Positions 8,201 to 25,962 of a stretch of DNA of 64,000 nt are shown here, one piece after another; the first letter of the stretch is position 1, and the number at the start of each line of letters is the position of its first letter. The position numbers and the translations under genes are program-made. The stretch lies in contig JAFVWS010000035.1 in assembly GCA_017501545.1 (NCBI GenBank), positions 75,408-139,407 on the forward strand. The letters run 5' to 3'. This stretch comes from Clostridia bacterium (lineage in GTDB: Bacteria > Bacillota > Clostridia > Oscillospirales > CAG-272). Below the pieces are notes generated by a model. It made no database searches and was not told where the DNA came from. It was given only the letters and a program-made list of their open reading frames with translations.

Positions 8201-9525
8201 TCGTTTAGTAAAATAGTATCGACTGAGCCGTTTTTGATTTTAATGCATTTCATATCCTGTCCGCCGATATCAAGCACACAGTCAACCTCAGGGTTAAAGA
8301 ATGATGCGGCTGTGCAGTGGGCAATGGTTTCAACCTCGCCCATATCAAGATTAAATGCAGATTTTAAAAGGTTTTCGCCATAGCCAGTTGAGCAGGCATA
8401 GGCAATTTGGGTTTTATCGTTAATAAGCTCGCTAAGCTCCTTCATTGCGCGCTTAGCGGTAGCAATAGGTGAGCCCTGATTGCTTGAATAAAACGAGTAT
8501 AAAAGCTCTCCATTTTCGCCAATTAATGCAAGCTTTGTGGTTGTAGAGCCTGCATCAATGCCAAGGTATGCATTACCCTCGTAGGCTTTTATATCGCCAC
8601 GTGCAACGCGTGCGCCCTCGTGTCTTGCTTTAAACTCGCTATACTCCTCCTCGTTTTCAAATAGTGGAGGTAGCCTTTTAAGCTCAAACTTCATCTTAAC
8701 GCCTTGGCTTAGCTTTTCAAGAAGCAAGCTTAGCTCTATGCCCTCGGCGTCCTTTGCCTCAAGCGCTGAGCCATATGCGGCGAAAAGATGTGAATTTTCC
8801 GGGTCCACGGTTGTTTCGGGTGTAAGCTTTAAGGTCCTTATAAAGGAAGCCTTTAATTCTGTCAAAAAGTGTAGTGGGCCACCAAGAAATGCAACAGTGC
8901 CACGAATTGGCTTACCACACGCAAGGCCTGAAACGGTTTGGTTTACAACCGCTTGGAAAATTGAGGCTGAAAGGTCAGGCACGCTTGCACCCTCGTTAAT
9001 TAGTGGCTGAATATCTGTCTTTGCAAAAACGCCACAGCGTGCGGCAATCGGATAAATACGCTCGTATTTCTTTGCCTCGTCATTAAGCCCCTTTGCATCG
9101 GTTTGCAAAAGTGACGCCATTTGGTCAATGAAGGAGCCTGTGCCACCTGCACAAATTCCATTCATTCTCTCCTCGATATTTGAGCCCTCGAAGTAGATGA
9201 TTTTTGCATCCTCACCACCAAGCTCAATTGCAACGTCGGTATTTGGGGCAAGGTGCTTAAGCGCCTCAGCAACTGCGCTTACCTCTTGGACAAAGCCGAT
9301 GTCAAGCGCCTTTCCAAGGTTAATAGCGCCAGAGCCAGTGATTTTTGCTTTAATTATAGAGTCGCCAAGCGCCTCTTTTAGGTCGCAAAGAAGTGAAAAT
9401 AGCTTATCCTGTGTGTGTGATAGGTGTCTTTCGTACTTACCAAAGACAATTTCATCTGAGTCATTAATAGCAACAACCTTAACAGTTGTTGAACCAATGT
9501 CAATTCCTACGCGATAAACGTTCAT
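5254..9525 (-). CDS. Fused acyl-CoA dehydratase activase (two BcrAD/BadFG ATPase domains) and 2-hydroxyacyl-CoA dehydratase-like domains
   Basis: Two actin-like ATPase starts are present (VGIDIGSTTVKVVA and LGIDAGSTTTKLAL). A Cys cluster (CKGCSNQCILT) and a long dehydratase-like C-terminal half follow. I place the start at ATG 9525, which is preceded by aaggagg, rather than at the ORF-track start 9555. Confidence 0.85.
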   Translation of the reverse strand: MNVYRVGIDIGSTTVKVVAINDSDEIVFGKYERHLSHTQDKLFSLLCDLKEALGDSIIKAKITGSGAINLGKALDIGFVQEVSAVAEALKHLAPNTDVAIELGGEDAKIIYFEGSNIEERMNGICAGGTGSFIDQMASLLQTDAKGLNDEAKKYERIYPIAARCGVFAKTDIQPLINEGASVPDLSASIFQAVVNQTVSGLACGKPIRGTVAFLGGPLHFLTELKASFIRTLKLTPETTVDPENSHLFAAYGSALEAKDAEGIELSLLLEKLSQGVKMKFELKRLPPLFENEEEYSEFKARHEGARVARGDIKAYEGNAYLGIDAGSTTTKLALIGENGELLYSFYSSNQGSPIATAKRAMKELSELINDKTQIAYACSTGYGENLLKSAFNLDMGEVETIAHCTAASFFNPEVDCVLDIGGQDMKCIKIKNGSVDTILLNEACSSGCGSFIESFASSLGYSARDFAREAIFAKNPIDLGTRCTVFMNSNVKQAQKEGASVPDISAGLAYSVIKNALFKVIKLNTADDLGHHVVVQGGTFYNHAVLRALESIAGVKVTCPDISGIMGAFGAALIARENRKGAKSSILSFEKIEALTYTSSTVRCKGCSNQCILTVNAFEGGRRHITGNRCERGAQGTQSTKKGENVASYKLDRMFNYPPLSKEEAKRGVIGIPRALNIYENYPFWATFFKELGFSVMLSPKSTKAIYEMGMDTIPSESECYPAKITHGHIRWLIENGAKTIFYPCIFYENQESSGAQNHYNCPIVVSNSENIKNNFEEIGSGEITYLRPFIAFTSEKTVANRLARYFHHERGYDISEGEIKRAVRLAWREQKNAKADIKKEGRRVLDLLEKEGGRGIVLAGRPYHLDPEINHGIPELISSYGFAVLTEDSLPEIYDEIKKLRVNDQWVYHTRLYNAAAYVRKYDHLELIQLNSFGCGIDAVTTDQVSEILENSGKLYTSLKIDEVNNLGAIRIRVRSLISAMNMRAKKGIRPHAEEINYKRAEFTEEMFKEGYTILAPQMSPIHFKLLEPLFRKYNYNFVVLSNTTKDAIDTGLKYVNNDACFPSISMVGQIMHAVLSGEYDTDRLAIIMTQTGGCCRASNYVSFIRRALDKVNLSHIPVISLNLTGMEKNSGFKIPKRALIGAVKVLVFGDLLMRCLYRTRPYERDMGSAEELYEKWNKICIDNVTNKKGHMSYGKICRGIVADFDNLPLKEGLVKPRVGIVGEILVKYMPLANNHLVELLESEGAEVTVPDMLDFFNYCVYNSEYKHKFFGFKLTSLLIARLGVAVIEAVRGPAKRALNKSRRFDTPMHITKVAKLAKPFLSIGNQYGEGWFLAGEMIELIESGVPNVVCIQPFACLPNHVVGKGVIKRVRSSYPESNIVAIDYDPGASEVNQLNRIKLMLSVAKKKIEREDLGEKPAPKN

Positions 9526-9662
9526 TCTCTTTTCCTCCTTTGCTTTTTCTATCATATTATTTTATAAACCCAAAATAAACTTAATATAAACTTTATAATA
9601 TTATATTATACATCATTTTTTTACAGTTTTGTTGTTTTTTTCAATAATTTTAGATAGAATGC

Positions 9663-12124: not shown

Positions 12125-15100
12125 TTACTTATAGAGTTCAATAAATCTCTTAAGTCTTTCGTACTTAGCCTTAGCAGCCTCTTCACTTGCTGTAAATAGC
12201 TTTTCTGCTCTGTCTGGGAATTGTTGAGCAAGACGGCTGTAACGTGTTTCGTTTGTAAGGAATGCACGGTAGTCGCCTGTTGGCTCCTTAGAGTCAAGTG
12301 AGAATGGATTTTGTCCCTCTGCCTTAAGTGCTGGGTTGTATCTAAAGAGATCCCAGTAACCAGCCTCAACAGCCTTCTTCATTTCGCCTTGGCAGTTTGT
12401 CATACCACCCTTAAGTCCGTGCATTTCACATGGAGCATAACCGATGATAAGTGATGGACCCTTATAAGCCTCAGCCTCAGCTATCGCCTTGATGGTTTGT
12501 GCTGGGTCAGCGCCCATAGCGATTTGAGCAACATATACGTAGCCATATGACATAGCAATTTCAGCAAGGTTCTTCTTACCGATAGCCTTACCAGCTGCAG
12601 CAAATTGTGCAACCTGACCGAGGTTAGAAGCCTTAGAAGCTTGTCCACCAGTATTTGAGTAAACCTCTGTGTCGAATACCATTACGTTAACGTCTTCGCC
12701 AGATGCAAGAACGTGGTCAAGACCACCAAATCCTATATCGTAAGCCCAACCGTCACCACCAAAGATCCATACGGATTTCTTTGAGAGGTATGTCTTGTCA
12801 GCAAGGATTTCTGGAGCTACTGGGCATCCTGCCTCAGCTGCCTTCTCAAGCTCTACGATGAGAGCCTTTGTAGCGCCCTCGTTTGCCTTACCGTCGTCAA
12901 CTGTGTCAAGGTAAGCCTTTGCAGCTGCCTTGAATTCGTCAGAAGCCTTGTCGCTTTCTGCCATTTCAGCAACCTTGCGGATAAGCTTTTCACGGAGAGT
13001 CTTTTGACCAAGGTACATACCAAGACCATGCTCAGCGTTGTCCTCAAAGAGTGAGTTAGCCCAAGCTGGACCACGGAGAGAATCCTTGTTTACTGTGTAT
13101 GGTGTAGCAGGAGCTGAGCCACCCCAAATGGATGAACAGCCTGTTGCGTTAGAAATGTACATTCTCTCGCCGAAGAGCTGTGTGATAAGACGTGCATATG
13201 ATGTTTCTGCACAGCCTGCACATGAGCCTGAGAACTCGAGAAGTGGTTGGTTAAATTGGCTACCCTTAACTGAAATTTCGTTAAATGGAAGCTCCTTCTT
13301 AGAAACGTTTGCAACTGCATAGTCAAATGCTGCTTGTTGGTCAAGCTGTGTAGCTTGTGGAACCATTCTAATAGGTGTCTTTTCTGGAGTGCCGTTTGCC
13401 TTAGCCTTAAGAGCAACTGGACAAACGTTTACACAAAGACCACAACCCATACAGTCAAGTGGGCTGATAGCGATTGTGAACTTGTAGTCCTCGCATCCCT
13501 TACCGATCATCTTAGCTGTGAACTTTGTTGACTCAGGAGCGTTTGCAGCCTCATCAGCATTCATAGCGAATGGACGGAGTGTTGCGTGTGGACATACATA
13601 TGAGCATTGGTTACATTGGATACAGTTTTCTGGAATCCACTCAGGAACAGTAACTGCAACACCACGCTTCTCGTATGCAGCAGCACCTTGTGGGAATGTA
13701 CCGTCAACGTAGTCAACGAATGCAGAAACAGGAAGCTTATCACCCTCCATCTTTGATACAGGGAGAAGTACGTTTTCAACATACTTAACAAGCTCAGGAC
13801 GCTTGCCCTCAACTGTTTCCTTAACGTCTACAACGTCAAGAGCTGCCCAAGCGGCAGGAACGTTAACCTTAACAAGTGCTTCCTTACCAGCGTCGATTGC
13901 CTTGTAGTTCATTTCAACCACAGCCTCGCCCTTCTTTAGGTAGGACTTCTTAGCCATGTATTTCATCTTTTCGATTGCTTCATCAATTGGCATGATGTTA
14001 GCAAGTGCGAAGAATGCAGATTGGAGAATTGTGTTTGTTCTCTTACCCATTCCAATTTCGATAGCCTTGTCAATAGCGTTTACAATGTAGAATTGTACGT
14101 TATTGTCAGCGATGTACTTCTTAACCTCTGCTGGGAGATGAGCATCAAGCTCAGCCTCTGTCCATTGGCAGTTGAGGAGGAATGTACCACCTGGCTTAAC
14201 GTCGTTAACAATCTTGTAGCCCTTGAGCATGTATGAAGGGTTATGGCATGCAACAAAGTCTGCTTTTGTTATGTAGTATGGGCTCTTAATAGCTGAATCA
14301 CCGAAGCGAAGGTGTGAAATTGTAACACCACCGGTCTTCTTTGAGTCATATTGGAAATAAGCTTGGATAAACTTATCTGTGTAGTCACCGATAATCTTAA
14401 TGGAGTTTTTGTTAGCACCAACTGTACCGTCACCACCAAGACCCCAGAACTTGCAAGAGATTGTACCCTTAGCGCTGGTGTCAACGTTAACTGTTTCAGG
14501 AAGTGAAAGACCAGTTACGTCGTCAACGATACCGATTGTGAAGTTAGCCTTTGGCTCATCAGCCTTAAGGTTTTCATATACTGCGAAGATTGAAGCAGGT
14601 GTTGTGTCCTTAGAACCAAGACCGTAACGACCGCCAACAACCTTAGCGTTAACACCCTTAATTGCGAGTGATGTAACAACGTCGAGGTAAAGTGGTTCAC
14701 CAAGTGAGCCTGGCTCCTTAGTTCTGTCAAGAACTGCTACCTTCTTAGCTGTAGCTGGGATAGCCTCAACAAGCTTCTCTGCTACGAATGGACGGTAAAG
14801 TCTTACCTTAACAAGACCAACCTTTTCGCCCATTGCTGTGAGGTAATCAATAACCTCCTCGCAAACGTCACATACTGAGCCCATAGCAACGATAACTCTT
14901 TCAGCATCTGGTGCACCGTAGTAGTTAAAGAGCTTATAGTCAGTACCGATTCTCTCGTTTACCTTGTTCATGTAGTTTTCTACGATTGCTGGGAATGCAT
15001 CGTAGTATTGGTTACAAGCCTCTCTGTGTTGGAAGAAGATGTCACCGTTTTCAGCAGAACCACGAAGAACTGGATGCTCTGGGTTGATTGAGCGAGCACG

Positions 15101-15712
15101 GAATGCGTTGATAGCATCCTTGTCAACCATTTCTTCAAGATCCTTATAGTCCCAAACCTCAATCTTTTGAATTTCGTGTGAGGTACGGAAGCCATCAAAG
15201 AAGTTAAGAACAGGAACTCTACCCTTAATTGTTGAAAGGTGAGCAACTGCACCAAGGTCCATAACCTCTTGTGGGTTTGTGCAAGCCATCATAGCATAAC
15301 CTGTTTGACGGCAAGCATATACGTCGGAGTGGTCTCCAAAAATGTTAAGAGCATGTGAAGCTACGCAACGAGCTGAAACGTGAATTACGTTTGGAAGAAG
15401 CTCACCAGCGATCTTGTACATGTTAGGAATCATAAGGAGCAAGCCTTGTGATGCTGTATAAGTTGTTGTTAGGGCACCAGCAGCAAGTGAGCCGTGTACT
15501 GTACCAGCAGCACCAGCCTCAGATTGCATCTCTGTAACCTTTACTTGTTCACCAAAAATGTTCTTTAAGCCTGTAGCACTCCATGAGTCGGTGAGCTCAG
15601 CCATAACACTTGATGGTGTGATTGGGTAAATCGCAGCAACCTCTGTAAACGCATAGCTGACAGTAGCGGCAGCGGTATTACCGTCCATTGACTGTTTCTT
15701 TCTTGTTATCAT
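12125..15712 (-). CDS. nifJ: Pyruvate:ferredoxin (flavodoxin) oxidoreductase, single-chain NifJ/PFOR type
   Basis: Two ferredoxin-type clusters are present (CIQCNQCSYVCPHA and CMGCGLCVNVCP), together with a TPP motif (GGDGWAYDIGFGG). The length is about 1195 aa. The start is set to ATG 15712 (MITRKKQSMDGN), which has an upstream ggagg. The ORF-track start at 15817 is an upstream in-frame extension. Confidence 0.95.
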   Translation of the reverse strand: MITRKKQSMDGNTAAATVSYAFTEVAAIYPITPSSVMAELTDSWSATGLKNIFGEQVKVTEMQSEAGAAGTVHGSLAAGALTTTYTASQGLLLMIPNMYKIAGELLPNVIHVSARCVASHALNIFGDHSDVYACRQTGYAMMACTNPQEVMDLGAVAHLSTIKGRVPVLNFFDGFRTSHEIQKIEVWDYKDLEEMVDKDAINAFRARSINPEHPVLRGSAENGDIFFQHREACNQYYDAFPAIVENYMNKVNERIGTDYKLFNYYGAPDAERVIVAMGSVCDVCEEVIDYLTAMGEKVGLVKVRLYRPFVAEKLVEAIPATAKKVAVLDRTKEPGSLGEPLYLDVVTSLAIKGVNAKVVGGRYGLGSKDTTPASIFAVYENLKADEPKANFTIGIVDDVTGLSLPETVNVDTSAKGTISCKFWGLGGDGTVGANKNSIKIIGDYTDKFIQAYFQYDSKKTGGVTISHLRFGDSAIKSPYYITKADFVACHNPSYMLKGYKIVNDVKPGGTFLLNCQWTEAELDAHLPAEVKKYIADNNVQFYIVNAIDKAIEIGMGKRTNTILQSAFFALANIMPIDEAIEKMKYMAKKSYLKKGEAVVEMNYKAIDAGKEALVKVNVPAAWAALDVVDVKETVEGKRPELVKYVENVLLPVSKMEGDKLPVSAFVDYVDGTFPQGAAAYEKRGVAVTVPEWIPENCIQCNQCSYVCPHATLRPFAMNADEAANAPESTKFTAKMIGKGCEDYKFTIAISPLDCMGCGLCVNVCPVALKAKANGTPEKTPIRMVPQATQLDQQAAFDYAVANVSKKELPFNEISVKGSQFNQPLLEFSGSCAGCAETSYARLITQLFGERMYISNATGCSSIWGGSAPATPYTVNKDSLRGPAWANSLFEDNAEHGLGMYLGQKTLREKLIRKVAEMAESDKASDEFKAAAKAYLDTVDDGKANEGATKALIVELEKAAEAGCPVAPEILADKTYLSKKSVWIFGGDGWAYDIGFGGLDHVLASGEDVNVMVFDTEVYSNTGGQASKASNLGQVAQFAAAGKAIGKKNLAEIAMSYGYVYVAQIAMGADPAQTIKAIAEAEAYKGPSLIIGYAPCEMHGLKGGMTNCQGEMKKAVEAGYWDLFRYNPALKAEGQNPFSLDSKEPTGDYRAFLTNETRYSRLAQQFPDRAEKLFTASEEAAKAKYERLKRFIELYK

Positions 15713-15932
15713 AAAAAACCCTCCAGTTTTATTTTTTGCAAAAATTTTTGCGCCTTTTCTGAATTTAGGCGCGAAAAAAGCACGCACGCGCGTACCCGTA
15801 CATAGTAATAATAGCACTTTTTATTTTCAATTTCAATACTTAAGGGTTATTTTTTTAATTTTTGTTACATATATATATAAAATTTAGCATAAACGGGATT
15901 CTTATATATAATTGATACAATATTGTCTTGCG

Positions 15933-15969: not shown

Positions 15970-18111
15970 CTATTGTATGTAAGCCTCAGCGCCTGCTTCT
16001 CTTAATTCATTGAGAACGTAGTTTGCCTCCTCAAGAGTGTCAAGCTCTGCAATTACGCAAGGAGCTGCATCAATCATATCCTTTGCGGTTCTTAAATCAA
16101 CCTCAAACATTTCCTTTATTGAGTTCATAACCGCAAGCTGATTTAGTCCACCTGATTGTAAAACCACGCTATACTTGCCTTCCTCACTGTCACTATCCTC
16201 TACGCACGCTTCCTCCTCACCGTCAGAAACCGCCTCGTATGTGCCAGTGTTTTCGCCCTCGTTTTGCATAAAGTTGATTTTTTGATTAATTTGTGCAATT
16301 GCGCTTCTTGCTGTATCAATATTAGCCTGAACAGCCATAATATCGTTCTCAATTTCGTGTACAGCCTCGCTTTGCTTGCCAATATTGCCAGGTCTATATC
16401 TTACAAGTGTTTTGATTGCTTGAATATGCGAAACCAAGCCACCGGTAAGAAGCATATCCGCAGGAATTAATCCAGCACGCTTAATCATTGCAAGCAAAAC
16501 GATGCCAGAAATAGTACGCACAACAATCATTGTAACAACTGAGCCTACATGGCTTCCATCTCCGCCAGTGCTTACCAAGTTTATAAATCCACTAAGAAGG
16601 GTGAAAATATATGCAATGGTAATAATCAGGTGCACTCCTGCAACCACGTTTAGCTTAATTGCATTTTTCTTGTTAAACTGACCGTGTCGCGCCCTTTCAG
16701 CAGCCTCTTCAAGGTCTTTCTTTTGTTTCAAGAACTCGCCTATACGGTTAGATGCGTTTTGTCTTGCGTTATATAGCGCTTGAAGCTCGCTTTGTCTTTG
16801 TGCCTCAAGCTCTGCATTTTCTCTAATTTGACGTTCTCTTTCTCTGCGCTCAGCCTCAAGCTTTTCAAGAGTTTCCTTAATCTGCGTATTATAACCGATG
16901 ATTCTTGTTGCCGTCTCGTCGTCTAAGAAACGAATTGCATTTTTGTAGGCTGCATAGTTTTCAAAAACTGTTGTGCAGTAAACGAGGTCAGATTCCTTTG
17001 TGCATTTTAGCTGAGCAAGAAGCTTGCCAAGATAAGCGCGTCCGTTTTCAGGGTCATTATCAAGCACCTTTTCAGCATATTCATCAGCGCTTGACCAATC
17101 CTCTGACTCAAGGAAGAGATATACACGCTTTAGAAGCGCCTCAGTATTTGCAGCCGGTGCTTGAATAGCTGTTGGCGCAGCCTGTGCTTGTATAGGTGCC
17201 TGCACCCTTTGCTCATTCTTTTTGCCTATGATTTTCTTAATACCTCTAATGAGGTCAGGCATAAAGCCAAGCTTGCTCATATCCTGTGCCTGTAGGTGGG
17301 AAAATTCTTGTGGCAAATCGTAAGGGTCCATATCCTTATATGCAGGAATTAGCACCTTTCTCGCACCATTTTTAATAAGTGAAAGATATCTTGACCACTC
17401 ATTCTTCACCCAAACTGCATTAAAGAATTCAGGCTTTGTTCCAAGAACAACCATTACCTTTGCACTATTAAGTGCAGCGAAGATATATGGCTCATAAGCA
17501 ACACCAAGCTTATCCTCAAGAGTAATACGGGCAAAGAACACCTTAAAGCCCTCTCTCTTTAGCTCGTGATAAAGCTCTGTTGCATAAACCGAATCGTGGG
17601 TTCTTCTTCCGTTTTCGTCTGTTTCCTTATAGCAAATAAATACATCAAATGGCTCTTCCTTTTGAGAAATATCAAGGATTCCCTTTTGAATTTCATTTAT
17701 TGCCCTTGCCTCCTCCTCATAAATAAGCTTTTGAGAAATGTCGGCATATTTTATAGCTGACTTATAGTTGTCATCGTCGAAAATTGACGTATATTGAGCA
17801 CGGTTAACGGTAGGAATTCTCTTCTTTGTTAGAGGGTCCTCTACGTATTCAATGCCATATTTACAAAGGACGATTGACCAATAGCTTTCCGCATCCTCGA
17901 TGTTTTCATTAAGAATCTCCTCATAGATTCCCATTGCCTTATCAAATTCATTGTTTCGGCGAAAATGATTTGCGCGGTCGTAAAGCCTTTCAATCATATC
18001 ATCATTAAGCCTTGGAAGCGTTTGCTGACTGCCACAATAATCGCAGGTGATTGTTGTGCTATTTTCAACATTTAATGCGCCACCACACATTTTACACTTA
18101 AAAACTGCCAT
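15970..18111 (-). CDS. Zn-ribbon / TIR / TPR-like / coiled-coil / 2-TM / L7-L12-C-terminal-domain-like protein (713 aa)
   Basis: From N- to C-terminus I see: a Zn ribbon (CKMCGG...CDYCG); a TIR-like block (FDVFICYKETDENG...VFFARITLE...AKVMVVLGT...AVWVKNEWSRY); TPR-like helices; a charged coiled coil (EAERRERERQIRENAELEAQRQ); two hydrophobic helices (VVAGVHLIITIAYIFTLLSGFINLV and VGSVVTMIVVRTISGIVLLAMI); and a C-terminus (YSVVLQSGGLNQLAVMNSIKEMFEVDLRTAKDMIDAAPCVIAELDTLEEANYVLNELREAGAEAYIQ) that resembles the ribosomal L7/L12 CTD. Confidence 0.8.
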   Translation of the reverse strand: MAVFKCKMCGGALNVENSTTITCDYCGSQQTLPRLNDDMIERLYDRANHFRRNNEFDKAMGIYEEILNENIEDAESYWSIVLCKYGIEYVEDPLTKKRIPTVNRAQYTSIFDDDNYKSAIKYADISQKLIYEEEARAINEIQKGILDISQKEEPFDVFICYKETDENGRRTHDSVYATELYHELKREGFKVFFARITLEDKLGVAYEPYIFAALNSAKVMVVLGTKPEFFNAVWVKNEWSRYLSLIKNGARKVLIPAYKDMDPYDLPQEFSHLQAQDMSKLGFMPDLIRGIKKIIGKKNEQRVQAPIQAQAAPTAIQAPAANTEALLKRVYLFLESEDWSSADEYAEKVLDNDPENGRAYLGKLLAQLKCTKESDLVYCTTVFENYAAYKNAIRFLDDETATRIIGYNTQIKETLEKLEAERRERERQIRENAELEAQRQSELQALYNARQNASNRIGEFLKQKKDLEEAAERARHGQFNKKNAIKLNVVAGVHLIITIAYIFTLLSGFINLVSTGGDGSHVGSVVTMIVVRTISGIVLLAMIKRAGLIPADMLLTGGLVSHIQAIKTLVRYRPGNIGKQSEAVHEIENDIMAVQANIDTARSAIAQINQKINFMQNEGENTGTYEAVSDGEEEACVEDSDSEEGKYSVVLQSGGLNQLAVMNSIKEMFEVDLRTAKDMIDAAPCVIAELDTLEEANYVLNELREAGAEAYIQ

Positions 18112-18132: not shown

Positions 18133-18858
18133 TTACTTTAATATTTTGCATTTAGCATTTCTTTCGCTAATAAGAGCAGATAGCTCCTTGGAAAACACAG
18201 CTGCGTTTTCTGCGTTTTTCTCATCAACAGCTACTGAAAATTCAGCAAATTTTTCTGTGATTCTACCCTCGACTGATTCGAGTGCTGGGTCTGACATAGG
18301 GTCGCTGTATCTAATTTCCTCATATACATTTCTTGCCAAAAGAGAAAGCTCCTCGCCGTCCGCCCTTGCCTTTAGCGCCTCTGCCTCGCTGATAAGCCAT
18401 CTCATATAAGTTGTCTTTGCTTCAACCCTTGCTTCTACAGCCGCAGCGTGCTCACCGCTTACCTTTGCGCCAAGTATAGAAATAACACCTACAACTAAGG
18501 TAATAGCACAAGCGATTATTCCAATCCAAGAAGCAACATAGCCATATACAGCTATGCAAATACCACCAATAACCAAGGTGACAATTAGAGTTGTTATGCT
18601 TGTTGAAATCATTGGAAGATTTAAAAATCTCTTATCCTTGCTCTTTTCACTAAGTGCAATAAATGCAATGGCAAGCTGACCAATAAAGGAAATTGTAATT
18701 ACAATATAAGCCGCCCAGAAAATACCCGTGCCAAGCTTATCAACCTCAACACCATTTATTTCTCTATATCTTGGTGTTACAAACGCAATTAGATTGAAAA
18801 GGCCAAGGGACAACGCCCAGCCAATAATATAATAAATAAAGCTTTTAGCGAATTTCAT
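18133..18858 (-). CDS. 4-TM membrane protein with a helical cytoplasmic tail (241 aa)
   Basis: Four clear hydrophobic helices are followed by an Ala/Glu-rich helical C-terminal domain of about 100 aa. A good RBS (ggagg) is present. No family recognised. Confidence 0.65.
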   Translation of the reverse strand: MKFAKSFIYYIIGWALSLGLFNLIAFVTPRYREINGVEVDKLGTGIFWAAYIVITISFIGQLAIAFIALSEKSKDKRFLNLPMISTSITTLIVTLVIGGICIAVYGYVASWIGIIACAITLVVGVISILGAKVSGEHAAAVEARVEAKTTYMRWLISEAEALKARADGEELSLLARNVYEEIRYSDPMSDPALESVEGRITEKFAEFSVAVDEKNAENAAVFSKELSALISERNAKCKILK

Positions 18859-18873
18859 TTTTCATCCTCCTTA

Positions 18874-21561
18874 TTAAAGCTTTTCGCCACATTCTGGGCA
18901 GAATTTTGGATTGCCGTTAATCTCTGTGTCACACTTCGCACATTTGCGAGCAAGGGCTGCCCCACATTCGCCACAGAATTTACCCTTAGCTGTCTTTTGA
19001 CCGCATGATGGGCAAATAACCTCATTGTCGTTAAGGCTTTCTATTTTTGCGCCACATTCTAAGCAGAACTTAGAGGTTGAAGGCACGCTCGCATTACATT
19101 TTGGGCAGGTTGTAGCAGGTGCAACTGGCTCTTGTGGCTGGAAGCCCTTAAACATATCGCCCATTTGTGGAGCAATGTGTCCTGCTGCTGCAAGACCAAC
19201 ACCAAGTCCAACCATATCACCAGCAACTGAGCCACCACCTGTGATTGTCATATTGCCAATGCCCTTTGCATATTCCTTTTGAACCTCAGCCTGAATAATG
19301 TCTCTTTGGTTGTAGCCTTGTGCCTGCATAATTTCAGCCTGTGCGAAGCCGTCCATCTTTTTAGCCTGAGCCTCTGCCTGAGCCTTAATAAGGTCTCTTT
19401 CAGCCTGACGCTTTGCAATTTCTGTTGCTGTTAGCTCGCCCTCAAGGATTGTTTCTCTGTCTGCCTTTATTTTAGCTGTTCTTACAGCTGCCTCTGCCTC
19501 TGCAACCTTTGTTTGCAGAGAGATTGTATGAAGCTCACGAAGCTTTTTGAAGTTAGGGTCGTTTTCCGGAAGATTGATTGTTGTTATGTAGAACTGTGGA
19601 ATTGTAAGACCATATTCCTCAAGTGCCGGTGTAATGTTTCTTCTTAATACCTCGGAAAGAAGCTCAAGGTTTTCGTCAACATCCAAAAGATCAATATTTT
19701 GAGATTTTATCGTTGCTGCAAGATGTGTCTTTACAGCAGTTGTGATAAGTGGACGGAAGCAATTTTGAAGCGACTTTGTAAAGAACGCACCACGCTCCTC
19801 CCATGCAATACCATTCGTTGTACCAACAAGCTTAATAAGAAGCTTACGAGCGTTGGAAACTGCTAAATTAAGCTCACCAGATGCGCCAATTTCAAGAGGA
19901 ATACCAAGCGTTGGCTCAACAAAGCGCACAAGCTCAGGTGTGCCCCATTTAATGCCCATTTGAACAGTCTTATTAATAAAGTAAACCTCACAGTGGAAGG
20001 GTGATTCTCCACCTGCCACTCTCTTCATTGATTTTCCAACAAGTGGAAGGTTTTGTGTTTCAAGAGTATGACGACCTGGGCCAAACAAATCAAGCGCTTG
20101 ACCATTAAGGAAGAATACTGCCTCCTGTGATTCGTGAACTATAAGCTGTGTATAATTGTTGAAATCCTCGCGTGGGTGCTTCCAAATAAAGGTATTGTTA
20201 TCACCCTCATATTTAATTACGTCTACCACATTGTTAGCCATAATAATTGTCCTTTCCCCTGCTACTGCCGGTTTTGTTGAATTTACAAAAGAATCATCGT
20301 CCCTTGACGAATTAGCGCCTCCAAAATTTGGCGGTGGCACAACCCAATTTGCTGATGCAATCTTTGAATCTGCCACTGGCGCAGAAGGCTTTGGTGCTTC
20401 AATAGGTGGAGCCTTAGGCGCGCCTGATGAAAAGTCATTTTTTGGTGAAGGTGCTTGTGTCTTAGCTGGTGCTGAAATTGTATCAAATAAATGACGGTCC
20501 TCCTCTGAAGGAAGCGTTTCATTCATAGATGAAGGCGCACCAACTGCTATCGTTTCCTCTGCAGCCTTGCCTTGTGACACCGCTTTGCCTTCAGTCCTGC
20601 TTGAATTGATTGGGGTGCCCTCCATTACAACATCATCAAGGGCTTTTTCTCCCATTTCCTTTTCACATTCTAAGAGCGCATCATAAAATTCCTTTGCAGA
20701 ATCGTATCTTTGTGCGCGTGGACTGATTGCCTTGACTATTACCTCTCCAAGCTTATTTTTCGCCATCACAGGCGCGCTTGGCATCTTGCCTGTCATTCTC
20801 GTTTCAAATGCAATATCCTCGTCCTCTGTTGAATATGGCTCTGGAAATTCTGGCAGGAATGGATTTCTTGATTTATTTAATAGCTTATATAAAACTATTC
20901 CAAGTGAATATAAATCCACTGTATTATCGTACTTTTCTTTTCCAAGGTATACCTCAGGTGCTATGAAGTTTGGTGTGCCCTTGACGGACTCAGCACGTGA
21001 CTTGTCCTTTAGCATTTTGGATACACCAAAGTCCCCAAGCTTATATTCACCCTTGGAGGAAACAAATATATTGTCGTCCTTAATATCTCTGTGAATGATG
21101 CTCTTTTCGTGACAGGAAATTAAGGCTGTCAATATATCCTTACCTAATTTTATTACGTCCCTTACAAGTATAGGCTTGCTTTCTATATAGTCTGTAAATG
21201 GTGTTAAAAACTCCATCATTATGTAAATGTCGTATGTTTTTGGAGATGGCGTCTCGATAATATCATTTTCATAATATCTAACTATGTTTTTAGTGCCACT
21301 CTCTGATAACGTGCTTAAAATTTGTATTTCACTAACTATATCATTAAGCACGCTTGCAAAATAATCGTCTGCCTTCGCATAGTCGCCGCCCATTGAGTTA
21401 AGCACGCTTGCATACTGCTTTTTTGTAGGCAATGTAATATGCTTTAGTGCCCTTACGTATGTTCCTGCGGCGTTTGTTTTTGATACCTTATAAACCGTTC
21501 CGAATCCGCCGGAGCCGATTTTTTCATCAACATGATAGCCTAATATTTCTTTACCGATCAT
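18874..21561 (-). CDS. Hanks-type Ser/Thr kinase fused to an SPFH/Band-7 (YdjI-like) domain and three C-terminal zinc ribbons
   Basis: Kinase motifs are intact (GSGGFGTVYKV, RALK, HRDIKDDN, DFG, APE). A P/A-rich linker follows, then an SPFH-like region (VIKYEGDNNTFIWKHPREDF...FHCEVYFINKT...), a coiled coil, and three CxxC...CxxC ribbons. ATG 21561 is preceded by ggag. The ORF-track start at 21564 is a TTG one codon upstream. Confidence 0.85.
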   Translation of the reverse strand: MIGKEILGYHVDEKIGSGGFGTVYKVSKTNAAGTYVRALKHITLPTKKQYASVLNSMGGDYAKADDYFASVLNDIVSEIQILSTLSESGTKNIVRYYENDIIETPSPKTYDIYIMMEFLTPFTDYIESKPILVRDVIKLGKDILTALISCHEKSIIHRDIKDDNIFVSSKGEYKLGDFGVSKMLKDKSRAESVKGTPNFIAPEVYLGKEKYDNTVDLYSLGIVLYKLLNKSRNPFLPEFPEPYSTEDEDIAFETRMTGKMPSAPVMAKNKLGEVIVKAISPRAQRYDSAKEFYDALLECEKEMGEKALDDVVMEGTPINSSRTEGKAVSQGKAAEETIAVGAPSSMNETLPSEEDRHLFDTISAPAKTQAPSPKNDFSSGAPKAPPIEAPKPSAPVADSKIASANWVVPPPNFGGANSSRDDDSFVNSTKPAVAGERTIIMANNVVDVIKYEGDNNTFIWKHPREDFNNYTQLIVHESQEAVFFLNGQALDLFGPGRHTLETQNLPLVGKSMKRVAGGESPFHCEVYFINKTVQMGIKWGTPELVRFVEPTLGIPLEIGASGELNLAVSNARKLLIKLVGTTNGIAWEERGAFFTKSLQNCFRPLITTAVKTHLAATIKSQNIDLLDVDENLELLSEVLRRNITPALEEYGLTIPQFYITTINLPENDPNFKKLRELHTISLQTKVAEAEAAVRTAKIKADRETILEGELTATEIAKRQAERDLIKAQAEAQAKKMDGFAQAEIMQAQGYNQRDIIQAEVQKEYAKGIGNMTITGGGSVAGDMVGLGVGLAAAGHIAPQMGDMFKGFQPQEPVAPATTCPKCNASVPSTSKFCLECGAKIESLNDNEVICPSCGQKTAKGKFCGECGAALARKCAKCDTEINGNPKFCPECGEKL

Positions 21562-21574
21562 CAACTTGCTCCTT

Positions 21575-22393
21575 TCAGAATTCTATCAATATAAGCGTAA
21601 TGTTATCACCATAGCCGGCATTGCGCCCAAGTGCACGCTCTATAAGAATTTTTCCAATTTGTTTAATGTCTTGATTTGTTTTAAATATCTCTGTCATTTC
21701 CTCATCGCTTAATACATCCGTCAAGCCGTCGGTGCATAACAGTAATTTTGTTGTATAGGCGCTTTTTTCAATTTTAAATGCGTCCGCAACCAATTCCCCA
21801 TTATATCCAATATATCTATATAGGTTTTTTCTTCTTGGGAATTTTTCGCACTCCTCCTTGGACAGAAGCCCTAAGCCTAAGAGCCTTTGTCCCTCTGTAT
21901 GGTCAACGGATAGCTGCTCCAGCTCCTCTCCTCTATAAGAATAAAGCCTGCTATCACCTACGTTAAAGCCATAAAGCTCACCGTTTTTGCGGACGAAGCC
22001 ACAAAGCGTTGCGCCCATTCCGTGAAGCTCCTCGCGCTCTCTTGCGCTTTCTACAACATAACGATTTAGCTTTGATATTTCGCCCTTCAAGGCTTCCTTA
22101 GTAATAGATGCAGGGTCAAAAATTCTTCTGCTATTTTCAGCCAAGTAGCCAACGCTCATCGCGCTTGCCACCTCGCCCGAGGCATGCCCCCCCATTCCAT
22201 CGGAGACGGCAATTATAAGATTATCCTCAAGATTACATTCGTATGCCAATTCATACGTCTGCCTGCTTTGAGAAATATAAAGCACCTCTTCCCTTGAAAG
22301 AATTCGTCCGTTGGCAATTAGCGCATTATCTTCTTGATTTTCGCGACTGTTTCCAACGCTTGAGGCAAAATATACAGAAGTTTTATCGGTCAT
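21575..22393 (-). CDS. PP2C-family Ser/Thr phosphatase (272 aa)
   Basis: Typical PPM motifs are present (EDNAL, SDGMGGHASGEVAS, CTDGLTD, DNITLILIEF). Its ATG shares one nucleotide with the stop codon of the upstream radical-SAM gene. Confidence 0.85.
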   Translation of the reverse strand: MTDKTSVYFASSVGNSRENQEDNALIANGRILSREEVLYISQSRQTYELAYECNLEDNLIIAVSDGMGGHASGEVASAMSVGYLAENSRRIFDPASITKEALKGEISKLNRYVVESAREREELHGMGATLCGFVRKNGELYGFNVGDSRLYSYRGEELEQLSVDHTEGQRLLGLGLLSKEECEKFPRRKNLYRYIGYNGELVADAFKIEKSAYTTKLLLCTDGLTDVLSDEEMTEIFKTNQDIKQIGKILIERALGRNAGYGDNITLILIEF

Positions 22394-23232
22394 TACCTAC
22401 ACCCCATTTTCCATTCGTGTTCGTTTTCCTTCATTTCTTCAATAGTACGATATCGCCATTTTTGTAATTTGGAGCACGGAGATATTGTTCCGTCTACATT
22501 TATAAATATCGCGCTTTCGCCAATGTCTAAACACCTAAATTCACTATTTGTAGTATACTCCCAATATTCTTTAAAGCATTTTTCTATTCGATACAAACTT
22601 GGATTTTTCGCTATTATATTTTGAATGCGTTGAATTGTATGAGTTGAAATGGTTGGACTGTATATTCCACTAAAAGATTTCACGGGGCGAAGTATGTCTA
22701 TTTTTTTCACGCCAATATTTACAAGATATTGAGACAATTTTTCAAAATTGTCAATATTTTGATCAGACAATACGACATTGGCACAGCATAATACACCCAC
22801 ATCGCAGGCATCTTTAATTGCCGCCATGCCAATATCATATGTATCACGAGTTAACGAGTTTATACTTTTGTCTATATCATTCATCGATATGCACAAAACA
22901 TCCAAACCGTTTTTTTTAAGTTCTGAGTATTTCTCTCTTGAATGATTGTATCCAGATGTTGCAAGAAAAACGAACCTTCTATTGCCCTTGCATTCTTTTA
23001 TCAACAAAGATAAATCCTCATGCATAAGCGGTTCTCCACCGGTTATTTGAACCACCTCAACATCTTTTGTCTGTGGTAAATTTAAAATTTCTTTTACTAC
23101 ATCCAATGATATATACCTGTCCCCTTTTTCGGTGTAGCAGTAGTTGCAATTATAGGGACAAGAATTGGTACATTGAATAACACAAGCCTGCAACCGCAAG
23201 ATTTTATTCCTTTTCCTTTTCTTGTTGGTCAA
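22393..23232 (-). CDS. Small radical-SAM enzyme with a short C-terminal Cys-containing (twitch/SPASM-like) tail
   Basis: It carries a CPYNCNYCY (CxxxCxxC) motif near the N-terminus, a GGEPLM motif, and a C-terminal FINVDGTISPCSKL. The start is uncertain. Position 23232 is a TTG that overlaps DUF4176 by 29 nt. In-frame TTGs at 23199 and 23193 lie just after the DUF4176 stop, with aaggaa upstream. No ATG precedes the Cys motif. Confidence 0.75.
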   Translation of the reverse strand: MTNKKRKRNKILRLQACVIQCTNSCPYNCNYCYTEKGDRYISLDVVKEILNLPQTKDVEVVQITGGEPLMHEDLSLLIKECKGNRRFVFLATSGYNHSREKYSELKKNGLDVLCISMNDIDKSINSLTRDTYDIGMAAIKDACDVGVLCCANVVLSDQNIDNFEKLSQYLVNIGVKKIDILRPVKSFSGIYSPTISTHTIQRIQNIIAKNPSLYRIEKCFKEYWEYTTNSEFRCLDIGESAIFINVDGTISPCSKLQKWRYRTIEEMKENEHEWKMGCR

Positions 23233-23485
23233 GACGAATTAATTTTTGCAAGAACTCCATTCCTTCTGCATCTTGAAGTCCAACAAAGAACAATTTGTCT
23301 ATTTGATCAAAGTTAAACAGGTATAGCTTTTCAGGATTTATTATTCCTTCAGGATACAAGCATCCGCTAAAATCCCACATTTTACCATTATCAATCTGTT
23401 TTTGTCTTAATCCAACCACCATAACTCGTTTGTTACTATTTTTCAAAAGCACAACGGAGCCGATTGGAAGATATTTGTTTTCCAT
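23204..23485 (-). CDS. DUF4176-family small protein (T7SSb accessory type, 93 aa)
   Basis: YLPIGSVVLLKNSNKRVMVVGLRQ...W(D)FSGCLYPEG matches my recollection of the DUF4176 signature. The gene lies directly downstream of a putative T7 substrate. Confidence 0.65.
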   Translation of the reverse strand: MENKYLPIGSVVLLKNSNKRVMVVGLRQKQIDNGKMWDFSGCLYPEGIINPEKLYLFNFDQIDKLFFVGLQDAEGMEFLQKLIRLDQQEKEKE

Positions 23486-23570
23486 GACTAATTTAAACCT
23501 TTCTTTCTCACATTATCCAAAAATCTTTTGTAAAGTGTATTTTATGTATTTTGATTGTCAAAAAAGATAC

Positions 23571-24728
23571 TTACCAAGAGGTTATGGCATTCCAAAAGCT
23601 CTTTGCTCCATCCGCAATCGTTTCGCCAACATCACTGAAAAAATCGCCTACTGCATTAACAGCGTCGTTAACAAAATCACCTACTGCTTCAACAGTGTCG
23701 CTAACAAAATCACCTACTGCTTCAACAGCGTCGCTAACGGTTTCTTTAAAATTTTCCCATCCTGCATCATTAAATCCAATTTCAATGCCAAGAGAAAATC
23801 CCAATATTGCTGCGACTCCGCCTTCCATTTTGAATTTTCCGTTTTCAAATCCAATCTCGCCCTCTGCTCCAATAGCTCCTGCATATCCACCGGCGCTGAT
23901 TTTTATATCCAATCCAAAAATGCTGAATGTCGCCTCTGCTTTTCCTTGAGCCGCGGCGACCATCGCCTTGCCTTCGGCTTTTGCTATAACTTTACCGTCA
24001 TCATCAATTTTCATGCCAATCTCGCCTTTTGCTTCAGCTACTCCAATGCCTCCTTCGCCACTTATGCCAAATCCCGCCATATCGTCACCGATATTTAAGG
24101 ATCCTTCAGCTCCTAGAACTTGGACTGAAGCTCCAACCTCGGCGCCAATAGATATAAATTCCATGGTTTCTTTTTCTTCCCATGTACCATCTTTCTTTTT
24201 TTCGCGCGTCTTTGTAGCTTTTCCAAAAGCAAACGAAGTGTCAAAGCTAGCCTCTGCTTTTCCTACGTAGGCATCTACTTCTGCGTTTCCCCAACCCCAA
24301 TCAGCACCGGCATAAGCATTGACTAAGTATGCACTTGCACTATTATCTGTAACCTTTGTTCCAAGTCCGTTAACATATGCGGAGCCCCATTTATCAGGTT
24401 TTTCAAGATCAGTCAAGCCTAAATCAATTTTAGCCGGCAAATATATATCAGGAGAATTCATTCCCAAAGGATCGTCTAAGCTTGCATAAACTATTGCAAC
24501 TTGAGATAGAAGCGCTCCCATTTGATTCAATGTAGTGGCCTCTTTTTTTAATTCCTCTGGAATCGAAAATATTTTTTCCTTTGCGCCAGAATGATATAAA
24601 ATATCCGTTTCTGCCGAGTTGATCGTTTCTACATAGGTATTATACACTCTTACCAATTCTTGTGTATATGAATTAATTGTGGAAGAATAGTCATTGATTT
24701 TGTTTACATTAACTTTAATATAAGGCAA
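23571..24728 (-). CDS. Putative T7SS substrate/toxin with an N-terminal helical (LXG/WXG-like) region and a Gly/Ala-rich repetitive C-terminal domain
   Basis: The gene follows the WXG genes. It has a TTG start with ggagg 7 nt upstream. The N-terminal 90 aa or so look helical. The rest is rich in GxxxG/A strings (GAEVGASVQVLGAEGSLNIGDDMAGFGISGEGGIGVAEAKGEIG...). The C-terminus carries a 3x 11-aa repeat, D(A/T)VEAVGDFV(S/N). There is no signal peptide. I could not point to a literal LxG motif. Confidence 0.45.
   Translation of the reverse strand: MPYIKVNVNKINDYSSTINSYTQELVRVYNTYVETINSAETDILYHSGAKEKIFSIPEELKKEATTLNQMGALLSQVAIVYASLDDPLGMNSPDIYLPAKIDLGLTDLEKPDKWGSAYVNGLGTKVTDNSASAYLVNAYAGADWGWGNAEVDAYVGKAEASFDTSFAFGKATKTREKKKDGTWEEKETMEFISIGAEVGASVQVLGAEGSLNIGDDMAGFGISGEGGIGVAEAKGEIGMKIDDDGKVIAKAEGKAMVAAAQGKAEATFSIFGLDIKISAGGYAGAIGAEGEIGFENGKFKMEGGVAAILGFSLGIEIGFNDAGWENFKETVSDAVEAVGDFVSDTVEAVGDFVNDAVNAVGDFFSDVGETIADGAKSFWNAITSW
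23640..23738. repeat. 3 x 33-bp in-frame tandem repeat inside 23571..24728
   Basis: The unit aaaatc(g/a)cctactgc(a/t)t(t/c)aacag(c/t)gtcg(t/c)taac occupies 23640-23672, 23673-23705 and 23706-23738. Confidence 0.9.
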
Positions 24729-24754
24729 ACTATTTCCTCCTATGTATTATCAAT

Positions 24755-25054
24755 TCAACTTTGTTGTGCTTGTGCGCCTTGTACGTTTGCATTTTCAGTA
24801 GCATCGTACGTGTCTGCTGCTTTCTCGAGAAATGTTGCATAGCTTATAATTGTCGTATAAATATCATCAAAATTATCAGCCAAGCCTTGGAACTTTGCAA
24901 CTGTTGTTTCTGCTGATTCGCCTTGCCAGGTTGATCTTAAGCTTTCGATTTCAGCAGTCATTTCGCCTGTGAATGTTTTAATAGAGTTAGCAACTGTCTT
25001 AAATGAGTTTGCCTTGTCTCTCATTGATGTAGAATTAACCTTAATTGTAGCCAT
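24755..25054 (-). CDS. WXG100-family protein (99 aa)
   Basis: The size fits, a central WQGES motif is present, and the helical composition and Q-rich C-terminus fit the family. The gene lies in the T7SS operon. Confidence 0.75.
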   Translation of the reverse strand: MATIKVNSTSMRDKANSFKTVANSIKTFTGEMTAEIESLRSTWQGESAETTVAKFQGLADNFDDIYTTIISYATFLEKAADTYDATENANVQGAQAQQS

Positions 25055-25068
25055 TTTAAAATTCCTCC

Positions 25069-25380
25069 TTAGATTCCTGTATGAAGATTGCTTGCGGCAC
25101 CTTTAATTGCCTCTTCTGTTTTAACGTAATTTTCCGCAGCTGCCCTAAGATACTTTACATATTGCAAAAGCACTGCCGACATTGTTTCAAAGTCGTTTCT
25201 GTAAGCCTCAAGCTTTGCATTAAACGTGTCACTTGCAATACCTTGCCATTGCGCAGATTTCAAGTTTTGAATTTCTGTGTAAAGCTTTGCCCACTCAGCG
25301 TTGTAGCGTGCGGTTTTCTCCTCGATTACGTTTGCAGAAGAAACCAATCTTTCTGTTGTTACTGCCCATTCGTTTGCCAT
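25069..25380 (-). CDS. WXG100-family protein (103 aa)
   Basis: A central WQGIAS motif (W-x-G) is present, with the expected helical hairpin size. It is adjacent to the other WXG gene. Confidence 0.7.
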   Translation of the reverse strand: MANEWAVTTERLVSSANVIEEKTARYNAEWAKLYTEIQNLKSAQWQGIASDTFNAKLEAYRNDFETMSAVLLQYVKYLRAAAENYVKTEEAIKGAASNLHTGI

Positions 25381-25438
25381 AGTTGTTATTTCCTTTCTTT
25401 TTACAGCTGTTGCTGATTTTTATTAATTATTTTCGCTA

Positions 25439-25681
25439 TCATCTAAGATTTTTAGCAGCACGTTCCATAGCGTTTGATACATCTGACATGCTTTGCTTCG
25501 TTTTTTGTATATCCGAAATAATCTTTGATAAACGGTTTTGAAACTCTTCGGATGCGGGACCTCTCCATTCATTTTTCATTTTATCTCGCAAAATCTCCAG
25601 CGAGAGAATTTTGCAGTCCAAATCCGACTCCAAATTATGGATTTGTTCGACTTGGCTAATAGCCTTTGAATAATCAGCCAT
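25439..25681 (-). CDS. Small WXG-like helical protein (80 aa)
   Basis: It has a WRGPASEEF motif and lies between the esaB-like gene and the WXG genes. It is shorter than typical EsxA. Confidence 0.5.
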   Translation of the reverse strand: MADYSKAISQVEQIHNLESDLDCKILSLEILRDKMKNEWRGPASEEFQNRLSKIISDIQKTKQSMSDVSNAMERAAKNLR

Positions 25682-25694
25682 GATGATACCCCCG

Positions 25695-25952
25695 TTATAT
25701 TAGCAATAGTTTTTCGCCGTGAGTGATGCCTAACTGCTTGAAATTACAGCCTGAATTAAGCACCTTGCCTGTTGACGCCTGCATAAGCGCGCCAGCTTGA
25801 AGCTTACTACGCTTAATTCCAGGATATTCCTCGCTGATTGCGTTTTGAATTAGCACAGTAGCATCTAACACACTCATTTCAAACGGAATAAGAAAATTAT
25901 GCTCGACGTTTAAGGAGAGAACCTTTATATTTACCGATAATTTATCTACCAT
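25695..25952 (-). CDS. YukD/EsaB-like ubiquitin-fold T7SS protein (85 aa)
   Basis: The size fits, and it lies 10 nt downstream of essC. The sequence pattern looks like a beta-grasp (LSVNIKVLSLNVEHNFLIP...GEKLLLI). Confidence 0.6.
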   Translation of the reverse strand: MVDKLSVNIKVLSLNVEHNFLIPFEMSVLDATVLIQNAISEEYPGIKRSKLQAGALMQASTGKVLNSGCNFKQLGITHGEKLLLI

Positions 25953-25962
25953 TTTATCCTCC

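Follow-up and report, generated by a model that had tools for sequence, protein, structure and literature searches.

In this work, we analysed a 64-kb stretch of DNA from a Clostridia bacterium (contig JAFVWS010000035.1, positions 75,408 to 139,407; hereafter the window) and concentrated on an open reading frame (ORF) at 15970..18111 on the minus strand of the window. It specifies a protein of 713 amino acids that contains a TIR domain and ends in a tail resembling the C-terminal domain (CTD) found in ribosomal protein L7/L12 (bL12). In bacteria as in plants and animals, TIR domains play a central part in immunity. With slightly better than even confidence, we read the protein as an SPFH-associated, membrane-anchored TIR effector or signal generator that carries an interchangeable protein-binding tail. 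As judged from its relatives, it belongs to a very large family, specific to Clostridia and widespread among them, in which a constant, predicted cytoplasmic module of Zn ribbon (ZnR), TIR domain and TPR-like repeats is joined to a variable C-terminal part, and its gene is evidently the last of a conserved cassette that encodes a YdjI-like SPFH/Zn-ribbon protein, a protein with four transmembrane (TM) segments and the TIR protein. An initial annotation, prepared from the sequence letters, had described a membrane-tethered, NAD-consuming effector with a GTPase- or ribosome-related interaction module. Its domain calls, the membrane anchoring, the position given to the glutamate and the assignment to cytoplasmic sides stood up in our analysis; the GTPase- or ribosome-related module was not supported, and the family and the SPFH cassette had been missed.

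The TIR domain covers residues 151-297 (17221..17661) and has an FDVFICYKE beta-A strand. Pfam TIR_2 matched residues 157-280 with 43.7 bits against a cut-off of 28. Upon searching with the TIR region of an AlphaFold2 (AF2) model, the best compact Foldseek match was the TIR domain of AbTir (7uxu_A, TM-score 0.73), other TIR matches being MyD88, TIRAP, TcpB and RPP1. The glutamate of WVKNEW had been proposed to sit at the catalytic position of NADase TIR domains. In agreement with this, W234-V-K-N-E238 provides the glutamate position of the W-x-x-x-E / S-x-W-x-x-x-E motif after beta-C and aligns with WCQYE of a Toll-like receptor (TLR) TIR domain. The pattern W-V-[KR]-N-E-W was present in 120 of the 120 nearest relatives, and WxxxE was kept in 95 of the 96 family ORFs from species-representative genome loci, one WAKNEW variant included; the exception is a truncated ORF. 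Comparison of the family profile with PDB sequences yielded TPR proteins and one TLR TIR only and no bacterial NADase TIR, so that the equivalence of the catalytic glutamate is drawn from the motif and from the Foldseek match with AbTir. Judged by motif and model, the TIR protein is probably an NAD-cleaving enzyme. It has the TIR fold and WxxxE in common with the bacterial TIR NADases AbTir, BtpA/TcpB and Thoeris ThsB and differs from them in that its TIR domain has a Zn ribbon/helical domain on one side and a TPR/coiled-coil/membrane anchor on the other, and in its SPFH and four-TM partners. Membership in Thoeris was considered and rejected, as ThsB-type models remained below threshold and neither SIR2 nor SLOG nor a ThsA-like partner was found among the neighbours. 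With the ThcB4 model NF058526, the score was 26.7 bits where 220 are required.

Upstream of the TIR gene lies a gene on the same strand (18133..18858) for a 241-residue protein (four TM segments, C-terminal half helical) for which no Pfam, NCBIfam or PADLOC family and no TPM domain was found. It is preceded by a gene (18874..21564, minus strand) for an 896-residue protein which combines a Ser/Thr kinase (Pkinase, 140 bits), an SPFH domain (Band_7_1, 129 bits) and double Zn ribbons (DZR, 52 bits). Ten nt further upstream is a gene for a PP2C phosphatase (21575..22393, minus strand; PP2C_2, 54.6 bits), followed upstream by a radical SAM gene, again on the same strand. Counted from the TIR gene, the gaps between these five genes amount to 21, 15, 10 and -1 nt. 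The PP2C gene is probably part of the same transcription unit, in this genome only. A terminator scan gave results no better than those for shuffled sequence, so the limits of the operon rest on gene spacing only.

The association of the SPFH and TIR genes is not restricted to the window. The two genes adjoin each other in five of five contig loci, the present one included. The four others are independent loci that carry family members of different architecture; here, the gene adjoining the TIR gene encodes an SPFH and double-Zn-ribbon protein of ~470 residues without kinase, and in three of the four loci one or two genes for membrane proteins of ~232 residues lie in between. For a broader survey we used the 60 of 79 genome loci that offer at least 3 kb of upstream sequence. 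An SPFH gene was present in 45 of the 60, directly upstream on the same strand in 35 cases and elsewhere in the locus in 10, and a homologue of the 241-residue protein was encoded directly upstream of the TIR gene in 34. The kinase occurred in none of the 79 loci. By this gene-order comparison, the SPFH-ZnR part is the conserved presumptive partner and the kinase a lineage-specific addition.

The homologue search for the TIR family gave at least 8000 matches (clusters at 90% identity), and relatives were detected in at least 590 species-representative genomes from Oscillospiraceae, Lachnospiraceae, Acutalibacteraceae, Ruminococcaceae, Anaerovoracaceae and others. Some loci contain tandem paralogues (96 family ORFs in 79 species-representative genome loci); within the 64-kb window, neither further paralogues nor further L12-like copies were found. 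Across the family matches, the N-terminal ~400 residues with Zn ribbon, helical domain, TIR and TPR are 50-87% identical. The C-terminal remainder is variable and may be L12-like, DUF6273, RCC1, LRR or RHS. Hydropathy of the best 120 matches distinguished class (a), with one TM segment and a large C-terminal part, from class (b), with 2-3 hydrophobic segments and a short tail. The single-TM relatives, with a cytoplasmic TIR, one TM segment and a large variable ectodomain that contains LRR in some, recall Toll-like receptors by way of architectural analogy only: the polarity is opposite with the TIR domain N-terminal, the architectures as a whole do not share an ancestor, and an ectodomain is missing from the present protein.

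The constant module starts with the Zn ribbon announced in the initial annotation (residues 1-33, 18013..18111; CKMC...CDYC). Its four cysteines C6, C9, C23 and C26 are invariant among the 28 homologues of alignment A1 and the AF2 model shows a Zn knuckle and short beta strands at 20-22 and 29-31; matches to Zn-ribbon hidden Markov models (HMMs) were weak. The following helical/TPR-like and beta-hairpin domain (residues 34-150, 17662..18012) has many invariant columns, among them YW..LC.YG..YV. It belongs to no Pfam family and showed weak TPR_2/TPR_7 matches at 42-70. AF2 predicts helices 38-84, a hairpin 87-102 and helices 114-151 with a predicted local distance difference test (pLDDT) score of 67-94. 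Behind the TIR domain, a low-complexity Q/A/P linker (residues 298-320, 17152..17220; pLDDT <50 at 299-320) leads to TPR-like helical repeats (residues 321-395, 16927..17151). Here, TPR_14 matched residues 324-365 marginally (24.2 bits, Pfam cut-off 23.5), in line with AF2 helices of pLDDT ~90 and with CTPR and TPR matches in the PDB. The charged coiled coil that had been described is present as a stalk toward the membrane (residues 398-476, 16684..16920), which AF2 models as one continuous helix of 79 residues with pLDDT 79-92, and is complemented by a second long helix behind the membrane segments. The whole-protein model has a pLDDT of 76. The identical 713-residue protein is present on eight contigs, the four displayed stemming from four separate samples, and the gene is hence real and its C-terminal fusion not an assembly artefact.

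Two TM helices had been proposed and are clearly present as a hairpin (16483..16656) consisting of TM1 (about 486-513), the acidic loop STGGDGSH and TM2 (about 521-543). The hydrophobic stretches proper are 495-513 and 525-543, with Kyte-Doolittle peaks of 2.21 for TM1 and 2.37 for TM2. Five K/R precede TM1, none is found in the loop and two (KR) follow TM2. A third, weaker hydrophobic segment had gone unmentioned. It comprises residues 546-570 (16402..16476), is probably re-entrant or interfacial, a third TM segment being the alternative, and is followed by a conserved amphipathic helix (residues 574-621, 16249..16392; a helix in AF2 and aligned in all class-(b) homologues) and an acidic disordered tether (residues 622-647, 16171..16248; 10 D/E and 1 K/R, pLDDT 27-42). 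If segment 3 crossed the membrane, the L12-like domain would come to lie outside the cell, and the post-membrane helix, the acidic linker and the L12-like domain would form a small variable extracytoplasmic ectodomain. Segment 546-570 is homologous to a strongly hydrophobic segment of the sister proteins, and a TM call was obtained for it in roughly half of the homologues of class (b). An outside location would also match the variable parts of the single-TM class (DUF6273, RCC1, LRR, RHS), which are otherwise outside the cell, the very acidic tail without a basic patch, the signal-peptide-like or lipobox-like N-termini of some L12-repeat proteins described below, and the dockerin, adhesin, fn3 or SPOR domains that some L12-repeat proteins carry. 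The charge distribution speaks against such a crossing. In 46 homologues with three segments, the mean number of K/R is 4.07 before TM1, 0.17 in loop 1, 2.30 in loop 2 and 3.80 over the 15 residues that follow segment 3, compared with 6.85 ahead of the TM segment and 1.56 behind it in the single-TM class. Segment 3 has a Kyte-Doolittle value of only 1.28 and contains D552, H562 and K567, and the AF2 model places a broken third helix (549-571) here with the break at G557/G558. Since both sides of segment 3 are rich in K/R and charged or polar residues and a helix break lie within it, a re-entrant segment with the C-terminus inside is favoured. Furthermore, the sister proteins hold their L12-like domain in the cytoplasmic part beside the TIR domain. 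We therefore consider a three-TM protein with its C-terminus outside unlikely, and hydropathy and charge statistics favour a cytoplasmic C-terminus and L12-like domain, as the initial annotation had assumed for this domain and the TIR domain alike.

The L12-like domain itself (residues 648-713, 15973..16170) has a diverged, acidic, non-ribosomal sequence on a well-recognizable L7/L12 CTD-like fold. Residues 648-712 matched Pfam Ribosomal_L12 (PF00542) along profile positions 2-66 of 67 (39.5 bits, cut-off 25.9), and phmmer found E. coli L7/L12 with E=1.4e-6. In the full-length AF2 model this region is poor (pLDDT 27-74) because alignment A1 was without C-terminal homologues. A domain-level model built from a domain alignment reached pLDDT 94.8 with the order beta-alpha-alpha-beta-alpha-beta, and its top Foldseek match was 1ctf, the E. 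coli L7/L12 CTD (TM-scores 0.86/0.93, root mean square deviation 0.9 A), ClpS forming a second tier. With this, the computations suggested in the initial annotation have come out as it anticipated: TIR_2, Ribosomal_L12 and TPR_14 all scored above their cut-offs, and the predicted structures superpose on the TIR and L12-CTD folds. The likeness to the bL12 CTD extends to ~30% identity and to attachment by a flexible linker. The present protein differs from bL12 in being a membrane protein of 713 residues rather than about 120-130 and in having no N-terminal dimerisation/L10-binding domain (Ribosomal_L12_N, PF16320, gave no match in the 713 residues). Likewise, the score for the equivalog TIGR00855 was 38.9 bits and thereby far short of the cut-off of 84.4.

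The fold invites the idea that the domain is a mimic of the stalk CTD which docks EF-Tu, EF-G, IF2 or L11 and thereby couples the TIR NADase to translation at the membrane. The helix and flexible acidic linker that tether it resemble the bL12 hinge, and the predicted cytoplasmic C-terminus would permit such contacts. Nuclear magnetic resonance (NMR) data have mapped the contacts of translational GTPases (trGTPases) on the bL12 CTD to residues 66-70 and 80-85 (PMC3505967), and the positions of K65, K70 and E82 lie in or beside these regions. Sister TIR proteins and most non-ribosomal copies keep K65, I69, K70, R73 and GLGLKEAKDLV, the inserts of the sister proteins reading KKLxCIKVVRETxGLGLKEAKDLVES. 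Across 414 other non-ribosomal copies, conservation was 81% for K65, 77% for K70, 89% for R/K73, 88% for L80, 65% for E82 and 82% for K84, and 288 of the 414 kept all three of K65, K70 and E82. The present copy keeps none of the three, a loss shared by 11 of the 414 (2.7%). In E. coli numbering it has Q65, L66, M69, N70, K73, D79, R81 and T82, and L80, A83, K84 and D85 are kept. Its net charge of -10 belongs to the lowest 1.2% of copies. Because K65, K70 and E82 are lost and the copy is very acidic, docking of a GTPase or the ribosome is unsupported for this domain. We also rejected conservation of the patch as an argument for GTPase binding by the canonical copies. Copies from signal-peptide-bearing proteins conserve it equally (80-89%, vs 86-96% in TIR-fused copies), which makes the patch a family trait and not evidence for a cytoplasmic GTPase partner. 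Moreover, the L12-like domain is absent from most members of the TIR family and so not central to the family mechanism. Hence, the stalk mimic appears to us quite improbable, and the GTPase- or ribosome-related module is the least supported element of the initial annotation.

The relatives of the domain point in the same direction. A word-indexed search with the 74-residue L12-like domain retrieved one fragment only. An exhaustive HMMER search with residues 640-713 gave 605 representative proteins at E<=0.001, the best 150 of which were inspected. Almost all of these 150 are non-ribosomal proteins of 150-1300 residues with 2-8 tandem copies, and the first genuine-looking bL12 (128 residues, one copy) appeared at 7e-8. 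By sequence similarity, non-ribosomal tandem L12-like repeats are nearer to the domain than bL12 is. Among 136 L12-repeat proteins, TIR_2 (24 proteins) and TIR (14) were by far the commonest Pfam partners, and Ribosomal_L12_N, the mark of true bL12, occurred in only two. SPOR, solute-binding, PNP_UDP_1, Pkinase, TerB and EF-Tu-domain-2 partners were found in a few each, and the longest proteins additionally contain dockerin, cleaved-adhesin/fn3 or LRV/HEAT partners. About 26 of the best 150 have signal-peptide-like or lipobox-like N-termini, and the ribosomal-stalk fold thus seems to be used outside the cytoplasm too. As a separate observation, one L12-repeat protein in alignment A3 contains EF-Tu domain 2 (GTP_EFTU_D2), which may bear on the relation of the canonical copies to translation factors.

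Within the Clostridial TIR family, 16 of the 120 nearest relatives have the L12-like domain; the 96 genome ORFs are without it. Fifteen sister proteins carry it between TIR and TPR at about 315-392 (two copies in P0012), that is, at the place of the low-complexity linker 298-320 of the present protein, which is the usual site of insertion. Only the present protein among the 16 has it at the C-terminus behind the membrane anchor. In this family, the domain is accordingly a rare, mobile accessory of variable position, one of several exchangeable modules that TIR proteins have acquired repeatedly, and L12-like domains often occur together with TIR domains in bacteria. Among published cases, vWA proteins from conflict systems contain L12/ClpS-like inserts at positions that vary (Kaur et al. 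2020, PMC7159879), and one orthocaspase carries an L12-like domain (PMC8283722). Common to these cases and ours is the addition of an L12-like fold at variable positions to multidomain, often conflict-related proteins. They differ in that the published ones are vWA and caspase proteins and ours is a TIR protein, and non-ribosomal L12-like repeat proteins usually have 2-8 tandem copies with the canonical patch, as opposed to one diverged copy after a membrane anchor. A literature search in the searchable library found no description of a TIR/L12 pairing or of an SPFH/TIR cassette. The recurrent TIR/L12-like pairing and the cassette therefore appear to be undescribed, as the initial annotation had supposed for the domain combination. 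One could go further and propose that L12-CTD-like modules are dedicated partners of TIR effectors which act by ribosomal-stalk mimicry, either recruiting trGTPases or standing in as integrated decoys for bL12-targeting phage factors. NAD-based immunity would in this way be connected with translation, in Clostridia inside a widespread, SPFH-scaffolded membrane-surveillance cassette, the present gene having a re-purposed acidic copy. We put this forward as a long shot.

A TIR/L12 combination was also seen outside the Clostridia. On a Bacteroidales metagenome contig (L090, 1-13113), a soluble TIR and L12 repeat protein (P0283) is encoded beside an nSTAND1 NTPase of 1185 residues, a TIR protein of 518 residues and a TIR fragment, and the related locus L092 has an additional TIR and hexapeptide-repeat protein. 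This locus looks like a diversifying TIR array. The TIR family of the Bacteroidales protein has interchangeable C-termini as well (L12, Lcl_C, Sel1, SEC-C). At NCBI, the 713-residue protein (P0001) and the Bacteroidales TIR and L12 proteins P0296 and P0297 bear the name 'ribosomal protein L7/L12', a systematic misannotation caused by the PF00542 match.

Taken together, we envisage that the SPFH scaffold and the four-TM partner hold the TIR protein in an assembly beneath the membrane. Perturbation of the envelope, or binding of a ligand in the relatives with large ectodomains, may then trigger TIR-TIR association via the stalk and the TPR-like repeats, and a composite active site around E238 would cleave NAD+, resulting in depletion or in a signalling nucleotide. 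The L12-like tail, extended on the cytoplasmic side by its helix and the 26-residue acidic linker, most likely serves as a protein-protein interaction, autoregulatory or oligomerisation module. We arrive at a general interaction module because the canonical trGTPase-contact residues are lost.

The upstream SPFH gene brings to mind a system of Bacillus subtilis. During the PspA stress response, YdjG and YdjH bring YdjI/SamI, a soluble scaffold that combines SPFH with a Zn ribbon at the C-terminus, to the membrane (PMC8581546, PMC11237479, bioRxiv 10.64898/2026.02.06.704340). The SPFH protein of the window has the YdjI architecture (Band_7_1 SPFH and C-terminal Zn ribbon) and is encoded together with membrane proteins, and the TIR protein, like YdjG, has its Zn ribbon first and its membrane anchor late, having nothing else in common with it. 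Membership in PspA-YdjGHI/SamGHI was rejected nonetheless: the called genes of the five loci and the neighbours in the window include no pspA (PspA_IM30), and neither YdjH with its TPM domain nor a protein of the YdjG type (two Zn ribbons, NTF2-like domain, TM) is encoded. The order of the genes is also different, a TIR protein is present, and in the window a Ser/Thr kinase is fused to the SPFH domain.

The similarity raises the question whether the TIR domain is a non-enzymatic scaffold, assembling homotypically as in TLR adaptors, in a housekeeping envelope-stress module that is the Clostridial counterpart of YdjGHI/SamGHI. Several findings weigh against an NAD-cleaving effector and some of them suit this explanation. 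A conserved glutamate is found at the same position in non-catalytic TLR TIR domains. PADLOC gave no matches for the SPFH half and weak matches only for the TIR part (PDC-S66 21-24 bits, ThsB 14.8-16.3 bits), and the cassette is flanked by housekeeping genes that differ between genomes (ruvAB, polA, a ribosomal protein operon, pyruvate:ferredoxin oxidoreductase) and not by defence islands. Together with the broad distribution in Clostridia, this is what a housekeeping module would look like, and owing to the flanks and the PADLOC results the system may be physiological rather than anti-phage. In addition, 15 of the 60 loci have no SPFH gene nearby, the topology was derived from hydropathy and charge statistics, and it was by exclusion that a role was assigned to the L12-like tail. 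A purely structural TIR domain is at odds with the practically invariant WxxxE glutamate at a position that is catalytic in characterised TIR NADases and with a best compact structural match to the NADase AbTir. The absence of PspA from every cassette examined, of TPM from the 241-residue protein and of a YdjG-type NTF2-like domain does not fit a YdjGHI counterpart, and conflict systems typically show the tandem paralogues and hypervariable C-termini seen in this family. All in all, we attach little probability to the non-enzymatic scaffold and retain the membrane-anchored TIR effector or signal generator as our preferred explanation.

Further genes of the window and of related loci complete the picture. 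Directly upstream of the cassette lies a type VII secretion system (T7SS)-like cluster (23204-30501, minus strand). It consists of a gene for an EssC-like FHA and FtsK/SpoIIIE protein of 1512 residues (25963-30501, minus strand), an 85-residue gene product and three WXG100 proteins (WXG100 genes at about 25681-24755, minus strand), a 385-residue protein without family (23571-24728, minus strand) and a DUF4176 protein (about 23485-23204, minus strand). The kinase fused to SPFH, the PP2C phosphatase (both in the region 18874-22393) and the FHA domain of the EssC-like protein make up a kinase/phosphatase/FHA set, through which the cassette and T7SS control might be connected in this lineage. The TIR gene is followed downstream by that for pyruvate:ferredoxin oxidoreductase (12125-15817). 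Unrelated neighbours are a 1433-residue BcrAD_BadFG and DUF2229 protein of the CoA-enzyme activase type (5254-9555, minus strand) and an 875-residue surface protein with five Listeria-Bacteroides repeats and a cadherin-like domain (1193-3820, minus strand). At other loci, genes for a transglutaminase-core protein, a double-Zn-ribbon protein and a MoxR-type AAA_3 ATPase lie downstream (locus L005, 12749-19840), or AAA, Sel1 and CYTH genes lie upstream (loci L006, 1-4832, to L008); such conflict-like neighbours are inconsistent between loci.

For most bacterial TIR proteins, the control of activation is the key question. One of the largest TIR families of gut Clostridia is membrane-anchored and encoded with a YdjI-like SPFH scaffold, suggesting that NAD chemistry is connected to surveillance of the membrane. 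For function, the family and its conserved SPFH cassette are the more informative features. The fold of the L7/L12 CTD, for its part, recurs in a large family of modules outside the ribosome, which are often tandemly repeated and in some cases seem to be secreted, with TIR as the most frequent partner, and database names such as 'ribosomal protein L7/L12' are wrong for proteins that combine TIR and L12-like domains. Should the L12-like modules bind defined partners, they would open a way to study the recruitment or triggering of TIR effectors.

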